DNA of 19,736 bases from Laspinema palackyanum D2c (GTDB lineage Bacteria; Cyanobacteriota; Cyanobacteriia; Cyanobacteriales; Laspinemataceae), in NCBI RefSeq assembly GCF_025370875.1, contig NZ_JAMXFD010000004.1:260777-280512 (forward strand), in the 5' to 3' direction. Position 1 is the stretch's first letter. Each line of letters opens with the position of its first letter. Below the pieces are notes generated by a model, which saw only the letters and a list, made by a program, of their open reading frames with translations, searched no databases and had not been told where the DNA came from. Shown in pieces: positions 2,990 through 19,736 of the stretch. Both the position numbers and the translations under genes were made by a program.

Positions 2990-3084
2990 ACCCTAGAATC
3001 ATGAGATCAAGTGAAGGAATACATTAATTGTGAATAAGGGGAGCCATTTGAAGCTCTATAAATTTCAAACTGGGTGCTTTTGCG

Positions 3085-3719: not shown

Positions 3720-3780
3720 GTCCCTAGGATTGACAGCAGCATCCATCCTCTAGGAGGATTGGGGCGGAAATAGCACTCAA

Positions 3781-3816
3781 AAAAAGCGATCGCCCCTGGG
3801 AGGCGATCGCTTTTTT
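3781..3816. terminator. bidirectional rho-independent terminator with HIP1 stems: AAAAA-GCGATCGCC-loop-GGCGATCGC-TTTTTT
   Basis: 9-bp perfect stem 3786-3794 / 3802-3810, A5 upstream and T6 downstream. Confidence 0.65.
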
Positions 3817-3884: not shown

Positions 3885-4862
3885 GTGAAATTTGCCTTCA
3901 TCATCGATCCGATCCAAAAACTAGATCCCACCCACGATACCAGCGTCGCGCTGATGGAATCCGCCCAAGCGAAAGGACATGAGGTTTGGATAACTGAGGC
4001 GCATCAACTCAGCGTCGTGAATGGCAAAGCTTGGGCAATTTTCGACCAAGTGACCCTCAAACCGATCGAACGCGCAGGCGATCGCTGGATAGCGGCAAAC
4101 CCCTGGTACCAAATCCAACCCGACGGTTCCCATCCCCTCGAAGCAATGGATGTCGTCTTCATGCGAACCGACCCCCCCGTCACCATTCCCTATCTCTACG
4201 CCACCTACATTCTCGATTACATCGACCCCGATAAAACCCTCGTCGTCAACTCCCCAAACGGACTGCGATCGGCCAATGAAAAAATGTATGCCCTCCAATT
4301 TACCTCGGTCATTCCTGAAACCATCGTCAGTCAAAGTAAAGTCGTGATTCGCGAGTTTTTAGACCGAAAAGGTGCAGCAGTTCTCAAACCATTAGGCGGA
4401 AAAGCCGGAGAAGGCATTTTATTCCTAGACCCCGAGGATAAAAACTTCAATTCCCTGATTGAAATTAGTACCAAACAAGGCAAAGAACCCGTCATGGTCC
4501 AAACCTATCTCCCGGAAGCCAAACAAGGAGATAAAAGAATTATCCTCCTCAATGGCGAACCCATTGGCGCAGTTAATCGGGTTCCCAGTGGGAGTGAATT
4601 TCGTGGGAATATGGCCGTCGGAGGTCTAGCGGTCAAAACAGAAATTACCGATCGCGAACGACAAATCTGCGCTGAAGTCGGTCCGAAACTCCGAGAAGAT
4701 GGCCTATATTTCGTCGGCCTAGATGTGATTGGAGGTTATTTAACCGAAGTCAATGTCACCAGTCCCACAGGGATTCGCGAAATTGATAAATATCTCCCCA
4801 ATGATGAACGCCTAGGACATCAAGTGATTGACTGGGTAGAGAGTTTTATGATGGAAAAATAG
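3885..4862 (+). CDS. gshB: glutathione synthetase, prokaryotic ATP-grasp type (GTG start)
   Basis: collinear with E. coli GshB: YATYILDYIDPDKTLVVNSP, DKRIILLNGEP, RGNMAVGG, VGLDVIGGYLTEVNVTSPTGIREI; RBS AAGGGAAG 3872-3879. Confidence 0.92.
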   Translation: MKFAFIIDPIQKLDPTHDTSVALMESAQAKGHEVWITEAHQLSVVNGKAWAIFDQVTLKPIERAGDRWIAANPWYQIQPDGSHPLEAMDVVFMRTDPPVTIPYLYATYILDYIDPDKTLVVNSPNGLRSANEKMYALQFTSVIPETIVSQSKVVIREFLDRKGAAVLKPLGGKAGEGILFLDPEDKNFNSLIEISTKQGKEPVMVQTYLPEAKQGDKRIILLNGEPIGAVNRVPSGSEFRGNMAVGGLAVKTEITDRERQICAEVGPKLREDGLYFVGLDVIGGYLTEVNVTSPTGIREIDKYLPNDERLGHQVIDWVESFMMEK

Positions 4863-4868
4863 GGTCCA

Positions 4869-5005
4869 TGTTTGTAGTAACGACTTCAGTCGTTCCCTCC
4901 CTTGTTTGTAGTAACGACTTCAGTCGTTTCCTTCCTTGTTTGTAGTAACGACTTCAGTCGTTTCCTCCCATGTTTGTAGTAACGACTTCAGTCGTTCCCT
5001 CTCCC
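4869..5005 (+). repeat. 4 tandem copies of a 34-bp REP-like unit TGTTTGTAGTAACGACTTCAGTCGTT(C/T)CCTCCC, each with hairpin AACGAC-TTCA-GTCGTT
   Basis: unit starts 4869, 4903, 4937, 4971 (period exactly 34). Confidence 0.9.
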
Positions 5006-5059
5006 ATCATCCATCATCCGTCTGCTCACCCCTGACCCAGAACAAAGGACAAAAGACTT

Positions 5060-6220
5060 ATGACGAATTTATCCAGTGCCTCCTCTTATCCTACGGGCCC
5101 TAATTATGCACCGGGACCGATTGGTGTCGCCATTGTGGGGACAGGGTTTGGACAGAAAGTGCATATTCCCGGATTGAAAGAATATCCTCAGACTGAACCG
5201 ATCGCCGTCTATCATCGGGATATTAATCAGGCGGAAGCGATCGCCGCGACTCATCATATCCCCCTGGCAACCGATGCGATCGCCGATATCGCCAAAATGC
5301 CCGAAGTCCAGGCCGTGAGTCTGTCTACCCCGCCTTTCTTGCATTATGAAATGGCAAAACCCCTGCTAGAAGCAGGCAAACATTTATTACTCGAAAAACC
5401 CACCACCCTATCAGCATCGGAAGCAAAAGAACTCTATCGAATTGCCAATGCTAACGGTGTGGTCACGGCGATGGATTTTGAATTTAGATTCGTTCCAGCA
5501 TGGCAGCGGTTTAAAGAATTGTTAGATGATAGATATTGTGGACAAATCCGGTTAATTAAAATTGATTGGTTAGTCTCCTCTCGCGCTGATGCCAGTCGGC
5601 CTTGGAATTGGTACTCTCAAAAACAGCAAGGCGGTGGTGCTTTAGGGGCGATCGGGTCTCATTGTTTTGATTATATTTCCTGGTTATTTGGACCCGTCAA
5701 ACGCTTATCTGCTTCCCTGAGTACCGCAGTCACCGAACGTCCGGACCCGAAAGCGGGGGGACAACTAAAACCTGTAGATGCCGATGATACCTGCCTAATG
5801 ATGTTGGAATTGGCCGATGGCACTCCTATCCAAGTAAGTTTGAGTTCCGCAACTTACCAAGGACGAGGACATTGGGTAGAAGTGTATGGCGATCGCGGCA
5901 CCTTAGTCCTCGGCAGCGACAATCAGAAAGATTATGTACATGGGTTTAAATTGTGGGGTGCACCGGCAGGGGAATCCTTATCAGAATTGACGATTCCCAA
6001 CCGTCTGGAGTTTTCTAAAACCTACCCGGATGGCCGGATTGCGCCCTTTATTCGCGTGGTGGATAATTGGGTCCGAGGGATTGAGGCCAGACAGGCGATC
6101 GCCCCTTCCTTACGAGAGGGTGTCTATTCTCAACTCCTCATGGACCTCACCCATGAATCCCACGAAACCGGCACCTGGGTCACGGTACCCAATTTTGATG
6201 ACTATTTAGCACGCAGTTAA
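5060..6220 (+). CDS. Gfo/Idh/MocA family NAD(P)-dependent oxidoreductase
   Basis: N-terminal Rossmann GVAIVGTGFGQKVHIPGL; EKP motif LLEKP; C-terminal alpha/beta domain; 386 aa. Confidence 0.8.
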   Translation: MTNLSSASSYPTGPNYAPGPIGVAIVGTGFGQKVHIPGLKEYPQTEPIAVYHRDINQAEAIAATHHIPLATDAIADIAKMPEVQAVSLSTPPFLHYEMAKPLLEAGKHLLLEKPTTLSASEAKELYRIANANGVVTAMDFEFRFVPAWQRFKELLDDRYCGQIRLIKIDWLVSSRADASRPWNWYSQKQQGGGALGAIGSHCFDYISWLFGPVKRLSASLSTAVTERPDPKAGGQLKPVDADDTCLMMLELADGTPIQVSLSSATYQGRGHWVEVYGDRGTLVLGSDNQKDYVHGFKLWGAPAGESLSELTIPNRLEFSKTYPDGRIAPFIRVVDNWVRGIEARQAIAPSLREGVYSQLLMDLTHESHETGTWVTVPNFDDYLARS

Positions 6221-6230
6221 ACAAAGAAAA

Positions 6231-6299
6231 TGTTCGTAGTAACGAATTCATTCGTTATCTTCTCATGTTCGTCGTAATGACTTCAGTCGTTATCTTTTC
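6231..6299 (+). repeat. 2 direct copies of the same 34/35-bp palindromic unit (variants AACGAATTCATTCGTT and AATGACTTCAGTCGTT)
   Basis: same family as 4869-5005; stem preserved by compensatory and wobble changes. Confidence 0.85.
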
Positions 6300-6369
6300 A
6301 TGTTCGTAGTAACGAATTCATTCGTTATTCCCTTAAATTAAGAACGACTGAAGTCGTTACTACAAACAT
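6300..6369. mobile_element. MITE/BIME-like composite: unit + 14-bp spacer (TCCCTTAAATTAAG) + inverted unit; termini ATGTTCGTAGTAACGA ... TCGTTACTACAAACAT
   Basis: inverted repeat arms 6300-6328 and 6343-6369. Confidence 0.6.
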
Positions 6370-6390
6370 GGGCCTGATATTTTCTCCCAG

Positions 6391-6457
6391 TTCGTAGTAA
6401 CGACTTCAGTCGTTATTCCCTTAAATTAAGAACGACTGAAGTCGTTACTACGAACAT
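6391..6457. mobile_element. second MITE/BIME-like composite with perfect 25-bp inverted arms and the same 14-bp spacer
   Basis: TTCGTAGTAACGACTTCAGTCGTTA ... TAACGACTGAAGTCGTTACTACGAACAT. Confidence 0.6.
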
Positions 6458-6473
6458 CAAACCCCAGCATTGT

Positions 6474-7034
6474 TTAACATTCTTTCAAACTCGAAGGGGG
6501 ATAAGACGGTAACATTTCCACCGGGCGATCGCCAGGGAGCTCCTCAATCCACACCTGGACCCCGACTTTGCGAACCCGTCCCATCCGACCTGCTTTCGGA
6601 CCCTCTAAAATTTCCACCTTAGACCCCACCTGGGGCAGTTCCGTACAACTCGCCGAAGTTGCCAGGGCCAACTCCACCAACTTATCGATCGCCTGAGATG
6701 CTGGAATCGGTTGGTCTTGCAACCATTCCACCGTTTCCGGGGCCAGGGAAAACAACTTGCGGACTCGGTTTTTTTTGCGACTCTTTGGCCCTTTCTTCAA
6801 ATTTGCCTTGGAGTTAGGGTGGTGTCCCCGCTTACTCGGTGACCCGACTGCCTCAATTTCCCCAGTCCCTAAAACTCGGTTGCAGGTGGTCCGAATGTAG
6901 CACTCTTCATCGGTTTCACAGACCTCCGCAATCTCTAAAACCTGACACTCATACCAGTCGGACTGTTGGGGATCCGTGCGACAAACCACCTTCTGACCGG
7001 GGTGAAATTGTTTTTTGTCATCAAACATTGACAT
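6474..7034 (-). CDS. hypothetical protein; lysine/arginine-rich linker; C-terminal KOW-like motif (GSKVEILEGPKAGRMGRVRKV); possible RHH-like strand-helix (KLFSLAPETVEWL...AIDKLVELAL)
   Basis: 186-aa ORF, motif reading only. Confidence 0.5.
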   Translation of the reverse strand: MSMFDDKKQFHPGQKVVCRTDPQQSDWYECQVLEIAEVCETDEECYIRTTCNRVLGTGEIEAVGSPSKRGHHPNSKANLKKGPKSRKKNRVRKLFSLAPETVEWLQDQPIPASQAIDKLVELALATSASCTELPQVGSKVEILEGPKAGRMGRVRKVGVQVWIEELPGDRPVEMLPSYPPSSLKEC

Positions 7035-7627: not shown

Positions 7628-7696
7628 GGTTGTTATTTAGGGTGGATTGAGCTTCACCAAAGGGACAAGTTACCATAATGATAGGAGCTAGAATCA

Positions 7697-7727
7697 AGAA
7701 AACCCCAGGCGATCGCTTGGGGTTTTC
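7697..7727. terminator. bidirectional terminator AAAACCCCAGGCGATCGCTTGGGGTTTT (HIP1 in loop), between convergent genes
   Basis: stem AAAACCCCAgg / cTTGGGGTTTT with one G-U pair. Confidence 0.55.
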
Positions 7728-7807
7728 GGTATTAAGGCTCTAGTTTTAAGAGGCGATCGCGCCGGTTGAAGTTCTCCCCAGGAGAATCGGGCCGATAATC
7801 CCCGCAA

Positions 7808-8758: not shown

Positions 8759-10078
8759 CTAACGTCCTAAGGCAGCATTAGCCAAGTTAACCCCACCCGG
8801 AGTAGCTTCCGGGGGTTGTTGTTCTCCCAGCGCTTTACTGATCTCAACGCCGTTTTGCTCCAAAATCACAATCGGGTCAGCGGAATCTAAATTTTGCACC
8901 TCTTTCACCAGCACCTCGCCTAGGGCAATGCGATCGCCTACCTTCACATAGCGCGAAGTTGCCTCATTAGGAGCCTTAACAATAATTTGCACTTGACCCC
9001 CCGCTCGAATCACCCCAGTCACTTCCGTAGCTTGGGCTAAATCCGTAGAAGGTGGCGGTGGTGGGACCGGAGGTGGGGGTGGGGGAGGAAGCTGCTCTGG
9101 ACCAATTCCCACTGGCAGTTCCGGAAGACCTGGCACCCCTCGCGCCACTAAAGGCGGAAGCGTTGGGGGTTGAGGGGGACCCGCAGGGGCCTGGGCGACT
9201 ACCGGAGGCAGTTGTTCTGGACCAATTCCCACAGGCAGTTCCGGAAGACCTGGCACCCCTCGCGCCACTAAAGGCGGAATGGTGGGGGGTTGAGGGGGAG
9301 CCGGTGGACCAGCAGCCGCTTGTCGTGCGGGGGGTCGCGGTCTGGGAGGTAGTTGTTCTGGGCCAATTCCGAAAGGCAAATCGGGAAGGGAGGGAACTCC
9401 TTGACCCACCAGGTCGGGAATTTGTGGTCCTTGAGGACCGGGCGTTCCGGGTCTGGCTCCCGGGCCCGTTCCATTTCCAGTTCCTCCCCCTGGTCCCGGT
9501 CTGGCTCCCGGGCCCGTTCCATTTCCTCGGCCTGCTCCTGGTCCTGCTCCTGGTCCTGCTCCTGGTCCTGCTCCTGGTCCTGCTCCTGGTCCTGGGAAGG
9601 GTTGAAAGGGTTGAGCTTGGGCCACTGCTTGACCTGGGGGTAATTCTGGACCGATCGCCACCGGCAATTCCGGAAGATCAGGAACCGCACGGCCTGGAAA
9701 TTCCGGAACTCTAGGAGTTGCGGGTGCTGCACCCGGTGCAGGAGTGACCGGCACCGGCTGGACATCAAGTATCCCAAAGGGATTTTCCTGAGCCTGTCGG
9801 GCCCTTTGCTGGTCCAGTTGCCGCACTCGCTCATCTGGACTGGTTGGGGGAATTAAATTCCCAATGGAAGTGGGATCCGGGCGCTGAGGCACCACAGGTT
9901 CTGCAAATTCCGGGGATTCGGGTTGTTCTCCGGCTTCTGGGGACTCCGGTGGAGTCTCCGCTGCTGGGGGAGATGGCTCGACGGGGGCGACGACTTCCGG
10001 AGTCTCCGGTTCACCACCACACGCACTCAAGATGAGGACGAGCATCCCAATTGACACCTTTAATAAAAGTTGACGCAT
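8759..10078 (-). CDS. proline-rich repetitive lipoprotein with C-terminal ~90-aa beta domain (PilP/GspC-like, tentative)
   Basis: lipobox MRQLLLKVSIGMLVLILSAC; acidic Pro-rich N-region; 4x ~40-aa repeat G-x-G-VP-x-LPELPVGIGPEQLPP; (GPGAGP)n; C-terminal RYVKVGDRIALGEVLVKEV. Confidence 0.7.
   Translation of the reverse strand: MRQLLLKVSIGMLVLILSACGGEPETPEVVAPVEPSPPAAETPPESPEAGEQPESPEFAEPVVPQRPDPTSIGNLIPPTSPDERVRQLDQQRARQAQENPFGILDVQPVPVTPAPGAAPATPRVPEFPGRAVPDLPELPVAIGPELPPGQAVAQAQPFQPFPGPGAGPGAGPGAGPGAGPGAGRGNGTGPGARPGPGGGTGNGTGPGARPGTPGPQGPQIPDLVGQGVPSLPDLPFGIGPEQLPPRPRPPARQAAAGPPAPPQPPTIPPLVARGVPGLPELPVGIGPEQLPPVVAQAPAGPPQPPTLPPLVARGVPGLPELPVGIGPEQLPPPPPPPVPPPPPSTDLAQATEVTGVIRAGGQVQIIVKAPNEATSRYVKVGDRIALGEVLVKEVQNLDSADPIVILEQNGVEISKALGEQQPPEATPGGVNLANAALGR
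9088..9302. repeat. two near-identical 120-bp in-frame direct repeats inside the proline-rich gene (diverged copies around 9340-9420 and 9600-9700)
   Basis: CTGGACCAATTCCCAC(T/A)GGCAGTTCCGGAAGACCTGGCACCCCTCGCGCCACTAAAGGCGGAA at 9098 and 9218. Confidence 0.85.
9529..9596. repeat. microsatellite (CCTGCTCCTGGT)x5 encoding (GPGAGP)n; adjacent 48-bp duplication at 9451-9478 and 9499-9526
   Basis: read directly. Confidence 0.85.
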
Positions 10079-15412: not shown

Positions 15413-18400
15413 TTAGGGATTAGAATTATTGGTGGATTGCGGTGCAGTTCCCTCTGCTGCTGGTGGGGGAATTACCTGTCCGAATCCGGGCCAGAGTTCG
15501 TTTAATTTGACGGTTAATCCTATGTAGGGACCGGAGGCGGACCGATCGCCATTAAAGTCCCGATCGCTGACTTTGCCGAAGACGTATCCTAACCCTAATC
15601 TCAAATCCGGAGTCAAATAATATCCCACCTCTGCTACCACTCCCCATTCATCATAATTCGCATTAGTTTGATGTATCCATCGCCCTTCACCCATCACATC
15701 CCAGCGATACCCAAATCGATAGGTTGCCCTCAACTGATTTAAGGACACTAAACTTGTGCCGACTAAATCATCGGCGAGGTATGAGGTACTTTGCCTTAAT
15801 GCGGTTTTTCCATAAAATTCCCATCGCCAATTGGGGGTATAAATGCTTTCTAAAGCAAAGGTATGGTCTCGCGCTCTTGTGCCCGAATCAAATAATATCG
15901 AATTCGGTATCAAGGCTGGATTCTGGCGATAATCATACCGCAATAAGGCATTAAATTTATCACTATTAGGATTCCGATAGGCTAACCCCATTCGCAAATT
16001 CACCGTATCCCCCATTTCATCAAACAATTGATTTGATGACGATGCCTGTTGATAGCGGGTGAGGACAGACAAGGAGTCCGTAAGTTTACCCGATGCTGCT
16101 GCGGAAATCACTGTATTGTTGCCACTACTGGAAAACCGATGTTCATATCGGGCACTAGCAGCAAAGTCCGGATTTCCGGTATAGTCAAATCCCACACTGT
16201 AACTGTCTCCGCTAAGAATTCCTAATGCAGCAGCACTCTGTCCCGGTGCATAAGGTTGAGCAAATTCACTCCCAGCACCTGTGCGACTAAATAGAGAACC
16301 AAAGACGTGTTCATAGGCGAAATTTACACGAAATCCCGGGAAGACTGTCCACCCATGTTGTAATCCTAGGGCGGCCCCCATTGTCTGTCCGTTAATAAAG
16401 GAATAGCGTCCGGTGACGATGGTATCTTCGGTAACGTTGTAATCCCCATTGAGATTGAGACTGGTGATGGAATTGTCTTCATATTGTCCCCCAGTAAACC
16501 AGACTTGATTTAATTCAAGGGTGACTCCGGGAACTAAGCGCCAATCTAACCCTAAAATGGTGCGATCGGGATAAACCACATCTTCTTCTTTTAAGAGGTT
16601 GAATTCATTTTGCGCCCGAATGTTAATTGTATCGGTAATCGGCATAGAAAAGCGCGATCGCAACTGAGAAGAGGTGGCATCTAAGGGACTGGTTGCCACC
16701 TCATCTTTCCGGTTTCTCCAAACCCAATCTAATCCCAAGTTTGCCCGCCCAATGGTCTGCTGCAATCCAGCAGAGATGGTGGTTAAGGAGTTATTCAGTC
16801 CCATTCCCGGAATGGGTTCTCGTCTGGGGGTTAAAAAATCCTCGATCGCACTAATGGGACGGGGAGAATTACCAAAGTTTTTCTCATGGTCATAGGCAAA
16901 CTGTAACAGGGTCGTATTCGTTAACCGACTGTTTAATAATGCCCCATACCGTGTTTGTCCTGGCACAAAACTCACCGTGGCATCGTTGGCAAATCCTTCA
17001 TCCGTATTGCGATAATACAAGCGACTAGAAAAAGGTCCGCCAATGGCATTTAATTCAAATCGGTACGCCTCCCCTGTGACGAGTCCTAAAAGTTCAGAAT
17101 CGTTGGTGGAATGGGCGTATTCCGCAATAAATTGGCCGCTGACTGGGGTTCTGAAATTCGGCACTTCTTCTTCTCGATAATCAGTCACCTCTTGGGGTGC
17201 TTCTTTACCAAAGGTGAGCATGAAATCGGCCCCATAAAGTTCAAAATCTCGGATGCCTTGATTTTGGCGCAGGTAGGTGGCCCCCAACCATCCGGGGGTG
17301 TTGAAATCGCGGGAAAAATTATAGCGAACTCGTCCCCCCCAGAGGTTAGTATTGCCGTCCAAGTCTTCATGTTGATAGGTGGCAACGATGCGTCTGGCAA
17401 CGACGGTTTCTACCCCATTAACGGTTACCACATCGGTTCGCAGGAGGGGACGACGAAACAAGATGGACCCGCGATCATAGTCGATTTCATAATCTGACCC
17501 TCGGTTGAGTTGTTGTCGTCGGACAATATTTCCCGGACGTCCGAGTTCTTCCAGTTCTAAAAATAAATTTTCACTGCCGGGGATGACTAATCGGTGAGAG
17601 AGGAAGTAAAATCCACTGGTCCCGTCGGGAGCGATCGCATCCCGTTGGAATCCTTGAACATCGTTGGCAAATAAGGCGCTGACTTGCCATTGTCCCCAGT
17701 TATAATTTCCTTTAAATCCCTGTAATGCGCGGGTTAAAGCAGTGAACTGTTGGGACTCGTTGGCAAATTCTGAAGTGCCATAATTTCCCCACATGAAGTA
17801 ATCTAATCCCGCATTTTCTTCCGATGAGGACCGTTCAAATCTCAGGAACACACTATCACTAGAAGGTGCAGTTGCCTGAACCGTTGAAGCATCTCCATAC
17901 AGGGGATAATTTTGCTCACTAAATTGGGTATCTGAAAATAACCGGCGGCGGTTGCCACTACAATCACAATTGAGCGATCGCTCGCTATTATAGGCCCCCG
18001 TAAATAACCATCCGCCTAACTCCCCAGTAGCAAACGCTGCACCTGTAACATCTAATTTAAACTCGTTATTTTCATCCGGGGGTAAAAAGTCCCGCAACCG
18101 TCCCCAATAGTCCAATCCTCGCCGTCCAAATCGCAGGTTAATTCCCCCAGTAACTAAACTCGGACGGAGGTAAGTATCAAACTGGATCTGAGTAAATGCT
18201 TCTAGCGATCGCCCTGCAATGGTTTCTGTATCTGTTGCGGCACGAATTCTCACGGTCTGAGCATCTAACGGCGACTGCAACTGTGCCGTAAATTCCCCAG
18301 CAATTACGGGTACTTGAAATCCAGCCTGATCGAGATTCAGGTCTTCCCCCATCAAGGTTCCCGCACTGGCACTGAGGGTAATCTCTGTGTCGCGTTCGAC

Positions 18401-19736
18401 TAATTTCCCATTTTCATCTAATAACCGTCCCTGAATATTAACAATGGACCGTCCATCGGCAGGCACTCTTTTTTCAACGGTTTCTACGGCAATTTCTGCG
18501 GCTCCTCCTGAGACAAATACGGTGACCAAAGATCCATTAACCGTTGCTCCAACCACGCGGATGGCGATCGCATTTTCCCCAGATTGTAAGGGAATCCCCA
18601 CCCAGGTTTGCGTCACCATCCCGGTATTACTATCCCGTTCCGTTTGTCCGACGGCATCGGAAGATACCAGATTCCCGTTTACCAGGAGTTCGATTTCCGT
18701 CCCTTCCGGAAATTGCACAATAATCTGGGTTGCTGGAACCCCCAACATTTCCCCCGGGGTTGGCGACAGGATCCGGATGCCACTCTCCGATTGTGCGATC
18801 GCTTCCGTGGCAGTTTCTAAATTTTCCCCAGTCCCTCTTGACCCTGGATTGGCTTCTGCTATAATGGGGGAAAGGGGGTTCTCTGTCAAAAATTGGTAAT
18901 TTTGCGAAGTTTCTCCCACACCCAAATTTATCTCTAAATCCAAAGACTCCCGACTACTAACTGTCGCTACGTTTGTAAGTCGGTTAACAATATCTGTAAT
19001 CCTTGTAAATTCAGTATTTTCAAGCCATATCGCTGATTTCATCGGATAGACATCGGGCAAATTTTCTGTTGCTGCAAATGTGGGTACAGATAAGGGAGCA
19101 ATCTGGAGTAAATTGTGGTCTCCAACTGCTACATTTGTCACAATATTTGTTGTGACATCGCTCCTCGCACTATTAACGCAAAAACCCCCCATTTTGCACA
19201 AATTTTCAGGCGTATTAAGTAAAAAAGCTACATCTGTTACTCTTAGTGTTGCTACAGAATTTAGGTATTTTTTGCCCGAAAATTCTGATATATTGGACGA
19301 TTCCTGGAAATCCCAAAAATTTCTTTGTGCTTCCAACAACCCGAGATTTTGGATGATTTCTGGGGACAACAACATCCCAGTGTCACTGGAGGCGATCGGG
19401 AAAATTGGCCCTAATTCAGGATCCGTTGTCTGAATTGGGGACAACTTTTCATCGGACAGAGTAAATTGCAGATGCTCTGTTGACAATAATCTGTTATGGG
19501 GTGTTTCCCCTGAGATATTGCTGGAATTAGCGGCATCGGGGACTGTTGCAGGGAAAGCATTCCCAGAAGTTGTCTCAATTTCCGATAACTTTTTATCGGA
19601 ACCTGTAACAAATTGCAGATGCTCTGTTGACAATAATCTGTTATCGGGTGTTTCCCCTAAGATATTGCTGGAATTAGCGGCATCGGGGACTGTTGCAGGG
19701 AAAGCATTCCCAGAAGTTGTCTCAATTTCCGATAAC
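15413..19736 (-). CDS. very large outer-membrane beta-barrel protein with N-terminal 49-aa tandem repeats and Big-1-like Ig domain(s); 5' partial (frame open to window edge; TTG at 19633 is only the first in-window start)
   Basis: C-terminal ~900 aa with alternating aromatic/hydrophobic strand pattern (YRFGYRWDV, GVVAEVGYYL, LGLGYVFGKV, YIGLTVKLNELW); Big-1-like VPADGRSIVNIQGRLLDENGKLV...ITLSASAGTL; no stop between 19634 and window end. Confidence 0.7.
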   Translation of the reverse strand, partial: LSEIETTSGNAFPATVPDAANSSNILGETPDNRLLSTEHLQFVTGSDKKLSEIETTSGNAFPATVPDAANSSNISGETPHNRLLSTEHLQFTLSDEKLSPIQTTDPELGPIFPIASSDTGMLLSPEIIQNLGLLEAQRNFWDFQESSNISEFSGKKYLNSVATLRVTDVAFLLNTPENLCKMGGFCVNSARSDVTTNIVTNVAVGDHNLLQIAPLSVPTFAATENLPDVYPMKSAIWLENTEFTRITDIVNRLTNVATVSSRESLDLEINLGVGETSQNYQFLTENPLSPIIAEANPGSRGTGENLETATEAIAQSESGIRILSPTPGEMLGVPATQIIVQFPEGTEIELLVNGNLVSSDAVGQTERDSNTGMVTQTWVGIPLQSGENAIAIRVVGATVNGSLVTVFVSGGAAEIAVETVEKRVPADGRSIVNIQGRLLDENGKLVERDTEITLSASAGTLMGEDLNLDQAGFQVPVIAGEFTAQLQSPLDAQTVRIRAATDTETIAGRSLEAFTQIQFDTYLRPSLVTGGINLRFGRRGLDYWGRLRDFLPPDENNEFKLDVTGAAFATGELGGWLFTGAYNSERSLNCDCSGNRRRLFSDTQFSEQNYPLYGDASTVQATAPSSDSVFLRFERSSSEENAGLDYFMWGNYGTSEFANESQQFTALTRALQGFKGNYNWGQWQVSALFANDVQGFQRDAIAPDGTSGFYFLSHRLVIPGSENLFLELEELGRPGNIVRRQQLNRGSDYEIDYDRGSILFRRPLLRTDVVTVNGVETVVARRIVATYQHEDLDGNTNLWGGRVRYNFSRDFNTPGWLGATYLRQNQGIRDFELYGADFMLTFGKEAPQEVTDYREEEVPNFRTPVSGQFIAEYAHSTNDSELLGLVTGEAYRFELNAIGGPFSSRLYYRNTDEGFANDATVSFVPGQTRYGALLNSRLTNTTLLQFAYDHEKNFGNSPRPISAIEDFLTPRREPIPGMGLNNSLTTISAGLQQTIGRANLGLDWVWRNRKDEVATSPLDATSSQLRSRFSMPITDTINIRAQNEFNLLKEEDVVYPDRTILGLDWRLVPGVTLELNQVWFTGGQYEDNSITSLNLNGDYNVTEDTIVTGRYSFINGQTMGAALGLQHGWTVFPGFRVNFAYEHVFGSLFSRTGAGSEFAQPYAPGQSAAALGILSGDSYSVGFDYTGNPDFAASARYEHRFSSSGNNTVISAAASGKLTDSLSVLTRYQQASSSNQLFDEMGDTVNLRMGLAYRNPNSDKFNALLRYDYRQNPALIPNSILFDSGTRARDHTFALESIYTPNWRWEFYGKTALRQSTSYLADDLVGTSLVSLNQLRATYRFGYRWDVMGEGRWIHQTNANYDEWGVVAEVGYYLTPDLRLGLGYVFGKVSDRDFNGDRSASGPYIGLTVKLNELWPGFGQVIPPPAAEGTAPQSTNNSNP
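19463..19736. repeat. 147-bp (49-aa) in-frame tandem repeat at the 5' end of the OMP gene; about 1.9 copies visible, truncated by the window edge; degenerate copy 19411-19462
   Basis: AAATTGCAGATGCTCTGTTGACAATAATCTGTTAT at 19463 and 19610; ...TTGTCTCAATTTCCGATAAC at 19570 and 19716. Confidence 0.85.

Follow-up and report, generated by a model that had tools for sequence, protein, structure and literature searches.

The gene for a Gfo/Idh/MocA oxidoreductase in Laspinema palackyanum D2c lies between two intergenic regions that contain short palindromic repeats, which raises the question of what these repeats are, how they arose, and whether the gene between them is mobile. The initial annotation compared the repeats with REP/BIME elements, took their inverted composites for possible MITEs mobilized in trans, and suggested that the oxidoreductase might be a cassette. 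In all likelihood, the repeats are GTAG-tagged REPs in BIME-like clusters that were seeded by a RAYT and later amplified locally, next to an oxidoreductase gene that is a fixed core gene.

Architecture of the two repeat clusters

Ten copies of the core GTAGTAACGACTTCAGTCGTT (2 mismatches or fewer) were found in the window, the whole 19,736-nt stretch of DNA that was analyzed, against a chance expectation of 0.01, and 0 of 200 shuffles reached 10 copies. All ten lie within the two intergenic regions around the oxidoreductase gene, and the rest of the window is without copies, which bears out the reported presence of repeats in both flanking gaps, the 253-bp convergent gap included. The conserved element spans 28 nt (GTTY-GTAG-T-AACGAC-TTCA-GTCGTT-MTC; consensus GTTYGTAGTAACGACTTCAGTCGTTMTC). 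Because one unit consists of an unpaired 5' GTAG tag followed by a hairpin of 6 to 7 bp, it is identified as a GTAG-tagged REP. Nine of the 10 window units have a perfect 6- to 7-bp stem closed by a 4-nt loop, with DNA hairpins of -4.4 to -4.6 kcal/mol, and the tag reads GTAG in nine units and GTCG in one. The positions of the repeats and their neighboring genes are given in Table 1.

Table 1. Genes and repeat features of the oxidoreductase locus (positions in the window)
Feature	Position	Strand	Remarks
gshB, glutathione synthetase	3885..4862	+	Pfam GSH-S_ATP 2.3e-73, GSH-S_N 6.6e-42
Upstream array, four head-to-tail REP units	4868..5004	+	between gshB and oxidoreductase
Upstream cores	4874-4894, 4908-4928, 4942-4962, 4976-4996	+	four perfect copies
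Gfo/Idh/MocA oxidoreductase	5060..6220	+	Pfam
Two direct REP units, 35-bp period	6230..6299	+	cores 6236-6256 and 6271-6291
REPIN-like inverted doublet 1	6299..6372	.	REP 6306-6326 (+, AACGAA), 16-nt spacer ATTCCCTTAAATTAAG, REP 6343-6363 (-)
REPIN-like inverted doublet 2	6387..6460	.	REP 6394-6414 (+), spacer ATTCCCTTAAATTAAG, REP 6431-6451 (-)
Convergent conserved ORF, 186 aa, no Pfam family	6474..7034	-	bounds downstream REP cluster

The four tandem direct units with a 34-bp period that had been described between gshB and the oxidoreductase were confirmed both by TRF and by the core scan. The period of this array is exactly 34 bp (TRF 4869-5001: 3.9 copies, 94% matches, no indels), and each unit is composed of GTTT, GTAG, T, AACGAC-TTCA-GTCGTT, and a pyrimidine-rich linker, with a DNA hairpin of -4.4 kcal/mol. 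The linkers of the upstream array resemble chimeras of right flank and left flank, without an exact match.

Downstream, six cores (6236+, 6271+, 6306+, 6343-, 6394+, and 6431-) occupy the 253-bp gap from the oxidoreductase stop at 6220 to the convergent ORF, and their order, + + + - + -, is the alternating orientation with short linkers of the BIME type. The first unit begins 15 nt past the oxidoreductase stop codon, as it does in all four relatives. In units 6236 and 6306, the stem is the compensatory variant AACGAA/TTCGTT, and unit 6271 is a degenerate copy with the GTCG tag, an AATGAC stem, one G-T pair, and a DNA hairpin of only -1.8 kcal/mol. The two inverted pairs are REPIN-like doublets. 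The GTAG ends of doublet 1 point outward, and the doublet folds as one DNA hairpin (-20.6 kcal/mol) with mismatches where the arms differ; doublet 2 contains a perfect 25-bp inverted repeat, GTTCGTAGTAACGACTTCAGTCGTT, and forms a DNA hairpin of -29.9 kcal/mol (z = -11.8). The composites at 6302-6369 and 6390-6457 share 96% identity at a spacing of 88 bp, doublet 2 being a tandem duplicate of doublet 1. The earlier description of this gap, two direct units and two inverted composites with perfect repeats of up to 25 bp, was correct in its components, but the direct units have a period of 35 bp rather than 34 bp and the spacer between core arms is 16 nt rather than 14 nt. The REP/BIME-type identity itself stands, with the GTAG tag, the covarying stem, and the alternating clusters, and the composites are inverted REP doublets.

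A covarying REP family and its association with RAYTs

The motif extends well beyond this locus, being dispersed in genomes of the Laspinema clade and in further phyla. In Laspinema and Oscillatoria, extragenic copies of the GTAGTAACGACTTCAGTCGTT core are scattered over at least 8 to 13 separate contig stretches per genome, and the identical core also occurs in Chloroflexota and Acidobacteriota. Of the 210 units in the Laspinema-clade stretches, 204 fall outside long ORFs, in gaps that are co-directional (19), convergent (17), or divergent (3). Neighboring units in these stretches are arranged head to tail in 105 of 139 pairs, the two inverted arrangements accounting for 20 and 14; head-to-tail periods in the clade are 31 to 37 bp, with pyrimidine-rich linkers of 10 to 16 nt that are themselves repeated.

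Among 204 Laspinema-clade units, the G, T, A, and G of the tag are each 97 to 98% conserved, and the first three positions of the 4-nt 5' extension are 95 to 98% conserved. Two wildcard stem positions are Watson-Crick paired (C-G, A-T, or T-A) in 224 of the 226 exact matches listed. The 79 distinct variants of GTAGT-N6-TTYA-N6 include 46 that are fully paired, and all six stem pairs show compensatory changes. Stem cells are paired in 88% of cases (shuffles, 64%), and the covariation score, 0.653 versus 0.225 in shuffles, was reached by 0 of 500 shuffles. The literature yielded no match to the GTAGTAACGACTTCAGTCGTT core as a query, nor did a search for REP or RAYT together with Laspinema or Oscillatoria acuminata, and the downstream cluster had no blastn match in plasmids.

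A connection to a RAYT/IS200-like transposase had been proposed, and for this REP family it holds outside Laspinema. The matches listed include ORFs of about 200 aa that have NHYH...YIHYNP, a proline-rich N terminus, and REPs on both sides (L009, L076, L079, L086, L088, and L090), and a further cyanobacterium (L124) has a RAYT with REPs of the same family on both sides. REP-flanked RAYTs are known here from Chloroflexota, Acidobacteriota, two other cyanobacteria, and metagenome contigs. The RAYT ORFs score 87 to 89 bits against NCBIfam REP_Tyr_transpos (NF047646; cut-off, 80), and their profile matches E. coli TnpA-REP (PDB 4ER8) at 3e-13. In a tblastn search of plasmids, E. coli rayT was matched by a cyanobacterial RAYT of this family (P0294). 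A REP lies 250 bp or less away in 21 of 38 metagenomic RAYT loci, and REPs lie on both sides in 9 of the 38. The motifs agree with subclass 2.8 of Quentin et al. 2018 (PMC6006769), and sequence comparison places the REP family in the type that flanks, and is presumably recognized by, subclass 2.8 RAYTs.

For Laspinema itself, the proposed connection found no counterpart: an HMM of six RAYTs, run on every ORF of 35 aa or more in about 330 kb of Laspinema-clade sequence, detected no RAYT. The best 120 matches in each of two RAYT homologue searches included no Laspinema protein, and neither the metagenome scan nor tblastn against plasmids returned a RAYT from Laspinema.

The locus in related strains

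In five strains whose oxidoreductases are 94.6 to 100% identical, REPs occupy the same pair of sites, and the flanks of these sites are conserved. The copy numbers, with the window given first, are 4/1/1/3/1 upstream and 6/4/2/12/13 downstream, so the anticipated variation between related strains was found, from 1 to 4 and from 2 to 13 copies, respectively. Upstream, one copy is present in L. olomoucense D3b, O. acuminata PCC 6304, and Oscillatoria sp. HE19RPO, and three are present in L. palackyanum D2a. Downstream, D3b has one inverted doublet, D2a four, and HE19RPO two, and mixed-orientation clusters are also found in D2a and HE19RPO. O. acuminata PCC 6304 has a single REP upstream of the oxidoreductase and a single inverted doublet downstream, with an AACGCC/GGCGTT stem in the orthologous doublet. 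The PCC 6304 chromosome is a finished assembly; most of the compared genomes are short-read drafts, and one array elsewhere (L101) contains a run of N, which may make the lengths of the longest arrays inexact. All differences between strains at the locus are differences in tandem copy number, a change that does not require a transposase, and the sequences point to local tandem amplification.

Gain or loss of the oxidoreductase between strains was not seen; the strains differ in tandem copy number at fixed sites, without new insertions. The oxidoreductase of the window matches P0363, a protein of Laspinema palackyanum/sp. D2c, at 100% identity. Orthologues of about 70% identity are found in many cyanobacterial genera, and the order grx-gshB-oxidoreductase is kept in all five Laspinema/Oscillatoria relatives. 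The convergent ORF likewise has an orthologous 184-aa gene (stretches L121, L129, L130, and L131). The idea of a cassette is unsupported because Oxynema aestuarii keeps the grx-gshB-oxidoreductase order intact at a locus without these repeats. Judged by this conservation and synteny, the oxidoreductase is an ordinary fixed core gene and not a mobile cassette.

Origin of the repeats and comparison with known systems

The unit is predicted to fold, on single-stranded DNA or RNA, into a 6- to 7-bp hairpin with an unpaired 5' GTAG. The single REPs and inverted doublets in 3' and intercistronic gaps of the Laspinema lineage most likely go back to RAYT activity, present or ancestral. At this locus, one REP would have been seeded upstream of the oxidoreductase and one inverted doublet downstream, a state still seen in O. 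acuminata PCC 6304. Later growth in place, which the strain comparison shows, followed two modes, one adding head-to-tail units of 31 to 37 bp and the other adding repeats of 82 to 118 bp that contain a doublet; it may have proceeded by replication slippage, unequal recombination, or HUH-type re-initiation between neighboring REPs. The orthologous site thus offers a natural series of REP-cluster growth, from one REP or doublet in PCC 6304 to 12 to 13 units in sister strains. Neither a new mechanism nor a mobile oxidoreductase gene is indicated.

It is possible, if on balance improbable, that the Laspinema REPs are orphans whose RAYT was lost or never arrived and whose arrays expand and contract in the manner of minisatellites, independently of a RAYT. 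The searches of sampled Laspinema-clade DNA and of the homologue lists described above are consistent with this, as are the dominance of head-to-tail arrays and the restriction of between-strain variation at the locus to copy number, and REPtron loss is documented in E. coli strains (PMC3733652). However, the sampled DNA is a small fraction of each genome, and the high uniformity of the units (GTAG intact in 9 of 10 and the conserved 5' extension) suggests recent spread or ongoing constraint. Orphan REPs would in any case be a subcase of RAYT-seeded, locally amplified REPs and not a different identity. Primary function as host regulatory RNA or DNA elements (terminators, stabilizers, attenuators, or protein-binding sites) that are under selection and not selfish is unlikely. 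Such a role would fit the start of the downstream cluster just past a stop codon and between convergent genes, the preference for co-directional and convergent gaps, the G-T pairs that occur in stems, and the very stable RNA structure predicted for the 253-nt downstream gap (-100.7 kcal/mol, z = -14); E. coli REPs, moreover, affect mRNA decay and termination (PMC3733652). Yet orientation relative to transcription shows no bias (32 sense versus 24 antisense), the units are without the U-tail of intrinsic terminators, a terminator scan flags the inverted arms alone and only weakly, and an Rfam scan of the whole window at gathering thresholds matched no family. Copy number varies among near-identical strains over the ranges given above and the repeats are absent in Oxynema; therefore, no particular dose is required. 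Regulatory effects are compatible with RAYT-seeded REPs and may be by-products. The arrays are positioned 15 nt past the oxidoreductase stop, about 20 nt past the stop of the convergent gene, and in the gshB-oxidoreductase spacer, and, if E. coli REPs are a guide, they probably have an incidental role as 3'-end barriers or mRNA stabilizers.

Cyanobacterial MITEs (Nezha) and the SDR elements of Nostoc resemble the Laspinema repeats in being small, dispersed, intergenic, partly palindromic, and found in filamentous cyanobacteria. MITEs are 70 to 300 bp long and are marked by terminal repeats of fixed sequence, duplicated target sites, and a parent IS, hallmarks of which none was found for the Laspinema repeats. 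The composites, at 68 to 74 bp with terminal inverted repeats of 25 to 28 bp and an intergenic location, have the dimensions of classical MITEs that a DDE transposase would mobilize in trans via the 25-bp terminal repeats, with the direct units as broken halves. Their placement among MITEs is nevertheless a wrong class assignment and that origin very improbable, given that inverted pairs are far fewer than single units and head-to-tail arrays, that no target-site duplication was seen by eye at the flanks of either composite (CTCCCA...ATCAAA), and that no related autonomous IS with ends matching the composite arms was found in the examined loci. Further, what is constant is GTAG with a short covarying hairpin and not a long fixed terminal repeat, the two arms of a doublet often bear different stem variants, and the sole gene repeatedly flanked by units is a Y1/HUH RAYT and not a DDE transposase. 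With palindromic direct repeats at regular spacing, the arrays also recall degenerate or miniature CRISPR-like arrays, an explanation that, together with assembly artefact, is of negligible probability. A CRISPR array is ruled out by short linkers that recur and so are not unique spacers, by inverted units interspersed with direct ones, and by a lack of Cas domains in the ORFs near the repeats according to gene calls and to Pfam scans, the latter excepting two large ORFs at the window's distant end; as to artefact, separately assembled genomes, among them the finished PCC 6304 chromosome, show the same architecture.

GTAG-tagged REPs, REPtrons, tandem REPIN clusters, and GTAG-guided CT cleavage have all been published (PMC3733652, PMC3116915, and PMC8266576), and characterized RAYTs bind an ssDNA hairpin, GTAG selecting a nearby CT/CA site at which the strand is cut and rejoined. 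The closest description is that of the GTAG REP superfamily (Di Nocera, De Gregorio & Rocco 2013, PMC3733652), which includes the cyanobacterial GTAG-12, -15, and -16 and to which the Laspinema REPs are likened by description and not by consensus. Both have an unpaired 5' GTAG, a covarying stem of 6 to 9 bp, and a short loop, and both are extragenic, mostly 3' of genes, as singles, HH/TT/HT dimers, and clusters, often in association with a RAYT (REPtrons). Laspinema and Oscillatoria acuminata are absent from the species analyzed in that study, in most of whose genomes head-to-tail dimers are absent or rare, whereas they dominate in the Laspinema clade. This dominance of head-to-tail arrays is the unusual trait of the Laspinema repeats.

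E. coli REPs and BIMEs are likewise built of GTAG-plus-hairpin units in alternating orientation with short linkers, and the alternation of AACGAA and AACGAC arms in Laspinema doublets recalls the E. coli Y/Z REP types. In contrast, the Laspinema stem is short and perfect and lacks the bulge that the E. coli enzyme needs, its TTYA loop is nearer to the T-T-N-A loop of Marinomonas group 3 REPs (PMC8266576) than to that of E. coli REPs, long head-to-tail arrays are untypical of the E. coli BIME layout, and the RAYT flanked by this REP family is of subclass 2.8 (NHYH/YIHYNP), different from E. coli TnpA-REP. The doublets share with REPINs (Bertels & Rainey 2011, PMC3116915) two inverted REPs, a short spacer, and a long hairpin. 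That paper takes the inverted doublet to be the unit that replicates, and in SBW25 doublets are the majority and singlets are regarded as decayed REPINs; in the Laspinema clade, inverted neighbors are the minority and the doublet is not the predominant form. The arms of Laspinema doublets often differ at a compensatory pair, so that the hairpin of each arm is preserved and the hairpin between arms is not. The REPIN paper also mentions "small dispersed repeats" once and analyzes REPs of Nostoc punctiforme.

Subclass 2.8 REPtrons (Quentin et al. 2018, PMC6006769) share NHYH, W[YH], YIHYNP, a length of about 200 aa, and a proline-rich N terminus with the RAYTs found here, as well as flanking REPs with 5' GT[AG]G, and some of the RAYTs carry REP insertions (L076). 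The eight subclass 2.8 sequences of that study all came from cyanobacteria, with relatives noted from other phyla; the present searches turned up hundreds of relatives, mainly in Chloroflexota, and located none in Laspinema. A REP core and one RAYT subclass are common to at least three phyla, which bears on strict vertical inheritance of REP-RAYT systems. We tentatively consider, while thinking it doubtful, that the subclass 2.8 REP-RAYT system moved between phyla (Chloroflexota, Acidobacteriota, and mat-forming Oscillatoriales) with its 21-nt core unchanged and that Laspinema switched from doublets to head-to-tail multiplication of 31- to 37-bp units, by HUH cleavage and re-initiation between adjacent REPs or upon transposase loss, giving hypervariable minisatellites beside core genes, with differences even among near-identical strains. 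For Laspinema and Oscillatoria, the arrays are strain-level length markers and a likely source of assembly breaks.

REP units around the oxidoreductase gene

The 21-mer GTAGTAACGACTTCAGTCGTT occurs 10 times in the window at no more than two mismatches (0.01 expected by chance), with no copy outside the two gaps that flank a Gfo/Idh/MocA oxidoreductase gene; the repeat family that the initial annotation had described on both sides of this gene is therefore real. The period of 34 bp given for its direct units is exact upstream, but the downstream direct units are spaced at 35 bp. The downstream copies take up the 253 bp that separate the oxidoreductase stop codon from a convergent ORF and include two inverted composites, 96% identical at a spacing of 88 bp. 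Perfect inverted repeats of up to 25 bp had been noted for these composites and are present in the second, whereas their description as MITEs was not supported.

REP copies and neighboring features in the window
Feature	Position	Strand	Remarks
gshB	3885-4862		Pfam-confirmed; upstream neighbor of first array
Upstream REP array	4874, 4908, 4942, 4976	+	Four perfect copies (TRF 4869-5001)
Oxidoreductase gene	5060-6220		Pfam-confirmed; between both REP clusters
Downstream REP copies	6236, 6271, 6306, 6343, 6394, 6431	+, +, +, -, +, -	Six units; 6236 and 6306 have the compensatory stem variant AACGAA/TTCGTT, 6271 is degenerate
First composite	6302-6369		
Second composite	6390-6457		Inverted arms perfect over 25 bp
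Convergent ORF	6474-7034	-	

The REP unit consists of an unpaired GTAG, one T, and the hairpin AACGAC-TTCA-GTCGTT. A single unit is predicted to fold at about -4.5 kcal/mol as single-stranded DNA and the inverted pairs at -20.6 and -29.9 kcal/mol as DNA, while the whole downstream gap is predicted to fold at -100.7 kcal/mol as RNA (z = -14). Across 204 Laspinema-clade units, the conserved element extends to GTT(C/T) ahead of the GTAG and (A/C)TC after the hairpin, and 156 of them have a CT dinucleotide no more than 10 nt beyond the 3' side of the hairpin; array linkers are pyrimidine-rich.

The hairpin is under constraint. Distinct variants gathered by a stem-blind rule (GTAGT-N6-TTYA-N6) numbered 79, with six positions paired in 46 and five in 24, and all six stem pairs were changed on both sides within their alignment. 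Paired cells amounted to 88% versus 64% in shuffles, and the covariation score was 0.653 versus 0.225, a value that none of 500 shuffles, nor any slid register, came near. Among the matches listed from a genome collection scan, the two wildcard stem positions were Watson-Crick (C-G, A-T, or T-A) in 224 of 226, the remaining two being one G-T pair and one mismatch.

REPtrons and GTAG-tagged REPs, with their dimer types, clustering, and position 3' of genes, have been reported from more than 80 species, among them cyanobacteria and Chloroflexi (PMC3733652). Bertels and Rainey identify REPINs, which are inverted doublets, as the replicating unit; their study also describes REPINs repeated in ordered tandem together with their flanks, as well as tandem REPs at even spacing (PMC3116915). 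Biochemical work on three REPtrons revealed that the enzyme binds the single-stranded hairpin, that GTAG acts in cleavage and in cleavage-site choice, and that cleavage falls at CT (or CA) 5' or 3' of the hairpin; the loop essential in the Marinomonas REP is T-T-N-A (PMC8266576), compared with TTCA or TTTA in the Laspinema family. By these published features, the elements in the window are structurally GTAG REPs in BIME-like clusters and their doublets REPINs, and the initial annotation had correctly recognized this REP/BIME-like identity.

Copy number at orthologous loci

The oxidoreductase of the window is 100% identical to the protein of Laspinema palackyanum / Laspinema sp. D2c. A comparison of related strains, as had been proposed, covered four close relatives (oxidoreductase 94.6 to 96.9% identical) and Oxynema aestuarii (70%). 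REP copy number at fixed sites differs between near-identical strains, from 1 to 4 upstream and from 2 to 13 downstream: 4 and 6 in the L. palackyanum D2c-like window, 3 and 12 in L. palackyanum D2a, 1 and 4 in L. olomoucense D3b, 1 and 13 in Oscillatoria sp. HE19RPO, and 1 and 2 in O. acuminata PCC 6304, the longest array lengths being possibly imprecise because all compared Laspinema, Oscillatoria, and Oxynema genomes but PCC 6304 are short-read drafts and an array elsewhere (scan stretch L101) has an N-run.

The order grx-gshB-oxidoreductase-(convergent ORF) is common to all five Laspinema and Oscillatoria genomes, in each of which the upstream-gap REP has the same position between conserved flanks (ATGTTY before and YCCTCTCCCAT after) and the downstream cluster starts 15 nt past the oxidoreductase stop codon. 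The downstream element of PCC 6304 is a single inverted doublet, both arms having the compensatory stem AACGCC/GGCGTT; the extra downstream copies in other strains are head-to-tail 35-bp left-arm units and doublet-containing repeats of 82 to 118 bp. Oxynema keeps grx-gshB-oxidoreductase, but both gaps lack REPs of this family. The locus comparison thus indicates that, in the Laspinema lineage, REPs arrived in intergenic DNA that was already there and afterward multiplied in situ. That the oxidoreductase gene might be a cassette was not borne out, given orthologues about 70% identical throughout cyanobacteria and the order kept in Oxynema without REPs. The spacer between gshB and the oxidoreductase gene is a hotspot for variation in repeat length.

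Short heptamer or nonamer tandem repeats, differing by strain, lie beside the upstream REP: (TTGGTCA)n and inverted (ATGACCA)n in D3b (L121, 5815-5845 and 5955-5985), which resemble cyanobacterial STRR-type heptamers, (GGATGGGGA)n in HE19RPO (L131, 1361-1415), and 2.3 copies of CCATCAT in the window (5004-5019). Downstream of the oxidoreductase, PCC 6304 (L129, 2820-2880) has an unrelated second GTAG-tagged palindrome, GTAGGGGCGCAATGCTTGCGCCCC, with an inverted copy, and Oxynema (L122, 5150-5185) has GTAGGGACACGGCAATGCCGTGTCC, likewise GTAG-tagged and followed by a T-run; both probably represent other REP families or terminators.

Dispersal and organization of the family

In the sequence covered, the REP family is dispersed and extragenic. 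The genome-wide search suggested in the initial annotation, run with GTAGTAACGANTTCANTCGTT on a species-representative genome collection, found copies well beyond this locus, with at least 226 exact matches in at least 120 stretches. Among the matches listed, many are from Laspinema olomoucense, L. palackyanum, Oscillatoria sp. HE19RPO, Phormidium pseudopriestleyi, and related MAGs, and the core is also found in many Chloroflexota (Anaerolineae, Caldilineales, and Herpetosiphon) and Acidobacteriota (Blastocatellia and Terriglobia) and in single Acetothermia and Zixibacteria MAGs; the stem variant is A-T in most Blastocatellia matches and T-A in some Chloroflexota and Acidobacteriota. Head-to-tail arrays reach at least 11 copies in Laspinema-group genomes (L013, L017, L100, and L101), and non-cyanobacterial copies mostly stand alone or form a pair with a variant REP in inverted orientation. 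The 21-nt core is identical across Cyanobacteria, Chloroflexota, Acidobacteriota, and the Acetothermia and Zixibacteria MAGs (e.g., stretches L088, 6848-7567; L090, 2434-3096; L081; and L093), which suggests either cross-phylum REP-RAYT transfer or unusually strong REP conservation.

Of 210 units in Laspinema-clade stretches totaling about 330 kb, 204 fall outside long ORFs, and the gaps with REP clusters are co-directional in 19 cases, convergent in 17, and divergent in 3; no sense bias was seen in these stretches (32 sense versus 24 antisense). Neighboring pairs are head-to-tail in 105 cases (period, 31 to 37 bp), inverted with GTAG outside in 20, and inverted with GTAG inside in 14. In contrast to the usual REP picture, head-to-tail arrays dominate here and doublet arms often differ at a compensatory pair. 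The doublets at 6306-6363 in the window, 2782-2839 in D2a (L130), and 2992-3049 in HE19RPO (L131) have AACGAA/TTCGTT in the left arm and AACGAC/GTCGTT in the right, so that each arm's own hairpin is perfect and the long inter-arm hairpin is mismatched; this difference, reminiscent of the alternating Y and Z REP types of Escherichia coli BIMEs, favors the own-arm over the inter-arm hairpin. A specialist might pursue just two points, the core being identical across phyla and the head-to-tail mode, which is minisatellite-like.

At many Laspinema-clade loci (L059, 7294-7340; L055, 354-400 and 470-516; L061; L071; and L096), a second, different hairpin directly follows the REP, as in GTCGTT ACCGCGTGA CTTGGC-NNNN-GCCAAG or GCTCTCGTGT CATGGC-NNNN-GCCATG. 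The juxtaposition suggests a larger composite element, absent from the window.

RAYT association and possible origin

In several phyla, RAYT genes of subclass 2.8 have REPs of this family on their flanks. Six scan stretches (five Chloroflexota and one Oculatellaceae cyanobacterium) contain an ORF of about 200 amino acids with such REPs on both flanks, a proline-rich N terminus, and the motifs NHYH(V/I)L and NYIHYNPVKH. These ORFs score 87 to 89 bits (78.6 for the cyanobacterial one) against the NCBIfam equivalog REP-associated tyrosine transposase (cutoff, 80), and a profile built from them hits 4ER8, the structure of E. coli TnpA-REP, at 3e-13. The motif set is that of subclass 2.8 (NHYH, W[YH], YIHYNP, about 199 amino acids, Pro-rich N terminus, occasional REP insertions, and flanking REPs with 5' GT[AG]G), which was found in cyanobacteria only, with relatives noted in other phyla (PMC6006769). 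Among the matches listed, homologues in Allocoleopsis, Coleofasciculus, and Nostoc are named REP-associated tyrosine transposase and others, e.g., in Prochlorothrix, transposase or hypothetical. A further cyanobacterial RAYT (L124) has GTTCGTAGTAGGGACTTCAGTCCCT and GTTCGTAGTAAGCACTTTAGTGCT as its flanking REPs. At 38 metagenomic RAYT loci, a REP of this type lies within 250 bp in 21 and on both sides in 9, frequently as GTAGTGACGACTTCAGTCGTC upstream and GTAGTAACGACTTTAGTCGTT inverted downstream.

The earlier suggestion of a RAYT-type enzyme thus agrees with the flanking of RAYT genes in other genomes, but no RAYT was found in the approximately 330 kb of Laspinema-clade sequence, nor was a Laspinema RAYT among the best 120 of either of two homologue lists. 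A RAYT would have seeded the REP elements. Array growth would be due to slippage or to unequal recombination; in another possible route, HUH-type cleavage would occur at the CT that follows a REP, and rejoining or re-initiation would take place at the next REP. The hairpins might incidentally protect or terminate the transcripts of gshB, the oxidoreductase gene, and the convergent gene. The plus strand between gshB and the oxidoreductase gene showed no sigma-70-like promoter, a weak supporting point that the upstream array may be intercistronic.

The Oculatellaceae RAYT gene (L076, 2644-3477) has REP-like sequences within its reading frame, with units at 2665 and 2699 near its 5' end and GTAGTAAAGGCTTTAGCCCTT at 3074; these add a peptide segment that the Chloroflexota RAYTs lack, which fits the REP insertions published for subclass 2.8 (PMC6006769). 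Elsewhere in the window, intergenic palindromes unrelated to the REP family surround the cyanobacterial HIP1 octamer GCGATCGC (3780-3816 and 7685-7740), and the HIP1-centered palindrome of the grx-gshB gap, AAAAAAGCGATCGCC-N7-GGCGATCGCTTTTTT, resembles a bidirectional terminator. Coding tandem repeats occur in the minus-strand ORF 8759-10078 (120-bp unit, 1.8 copies; 48-bp unit, 2.1 copies; and CCTGGT, 10.8 copies; 9084-9303 and 9446-9595), and at the right end (19463-19736) a 147-bp unit (1.9 copies, 98% identity) overlaps the 5' end of a 1,406-amino-acid minus-strand ORF (15413-19633).
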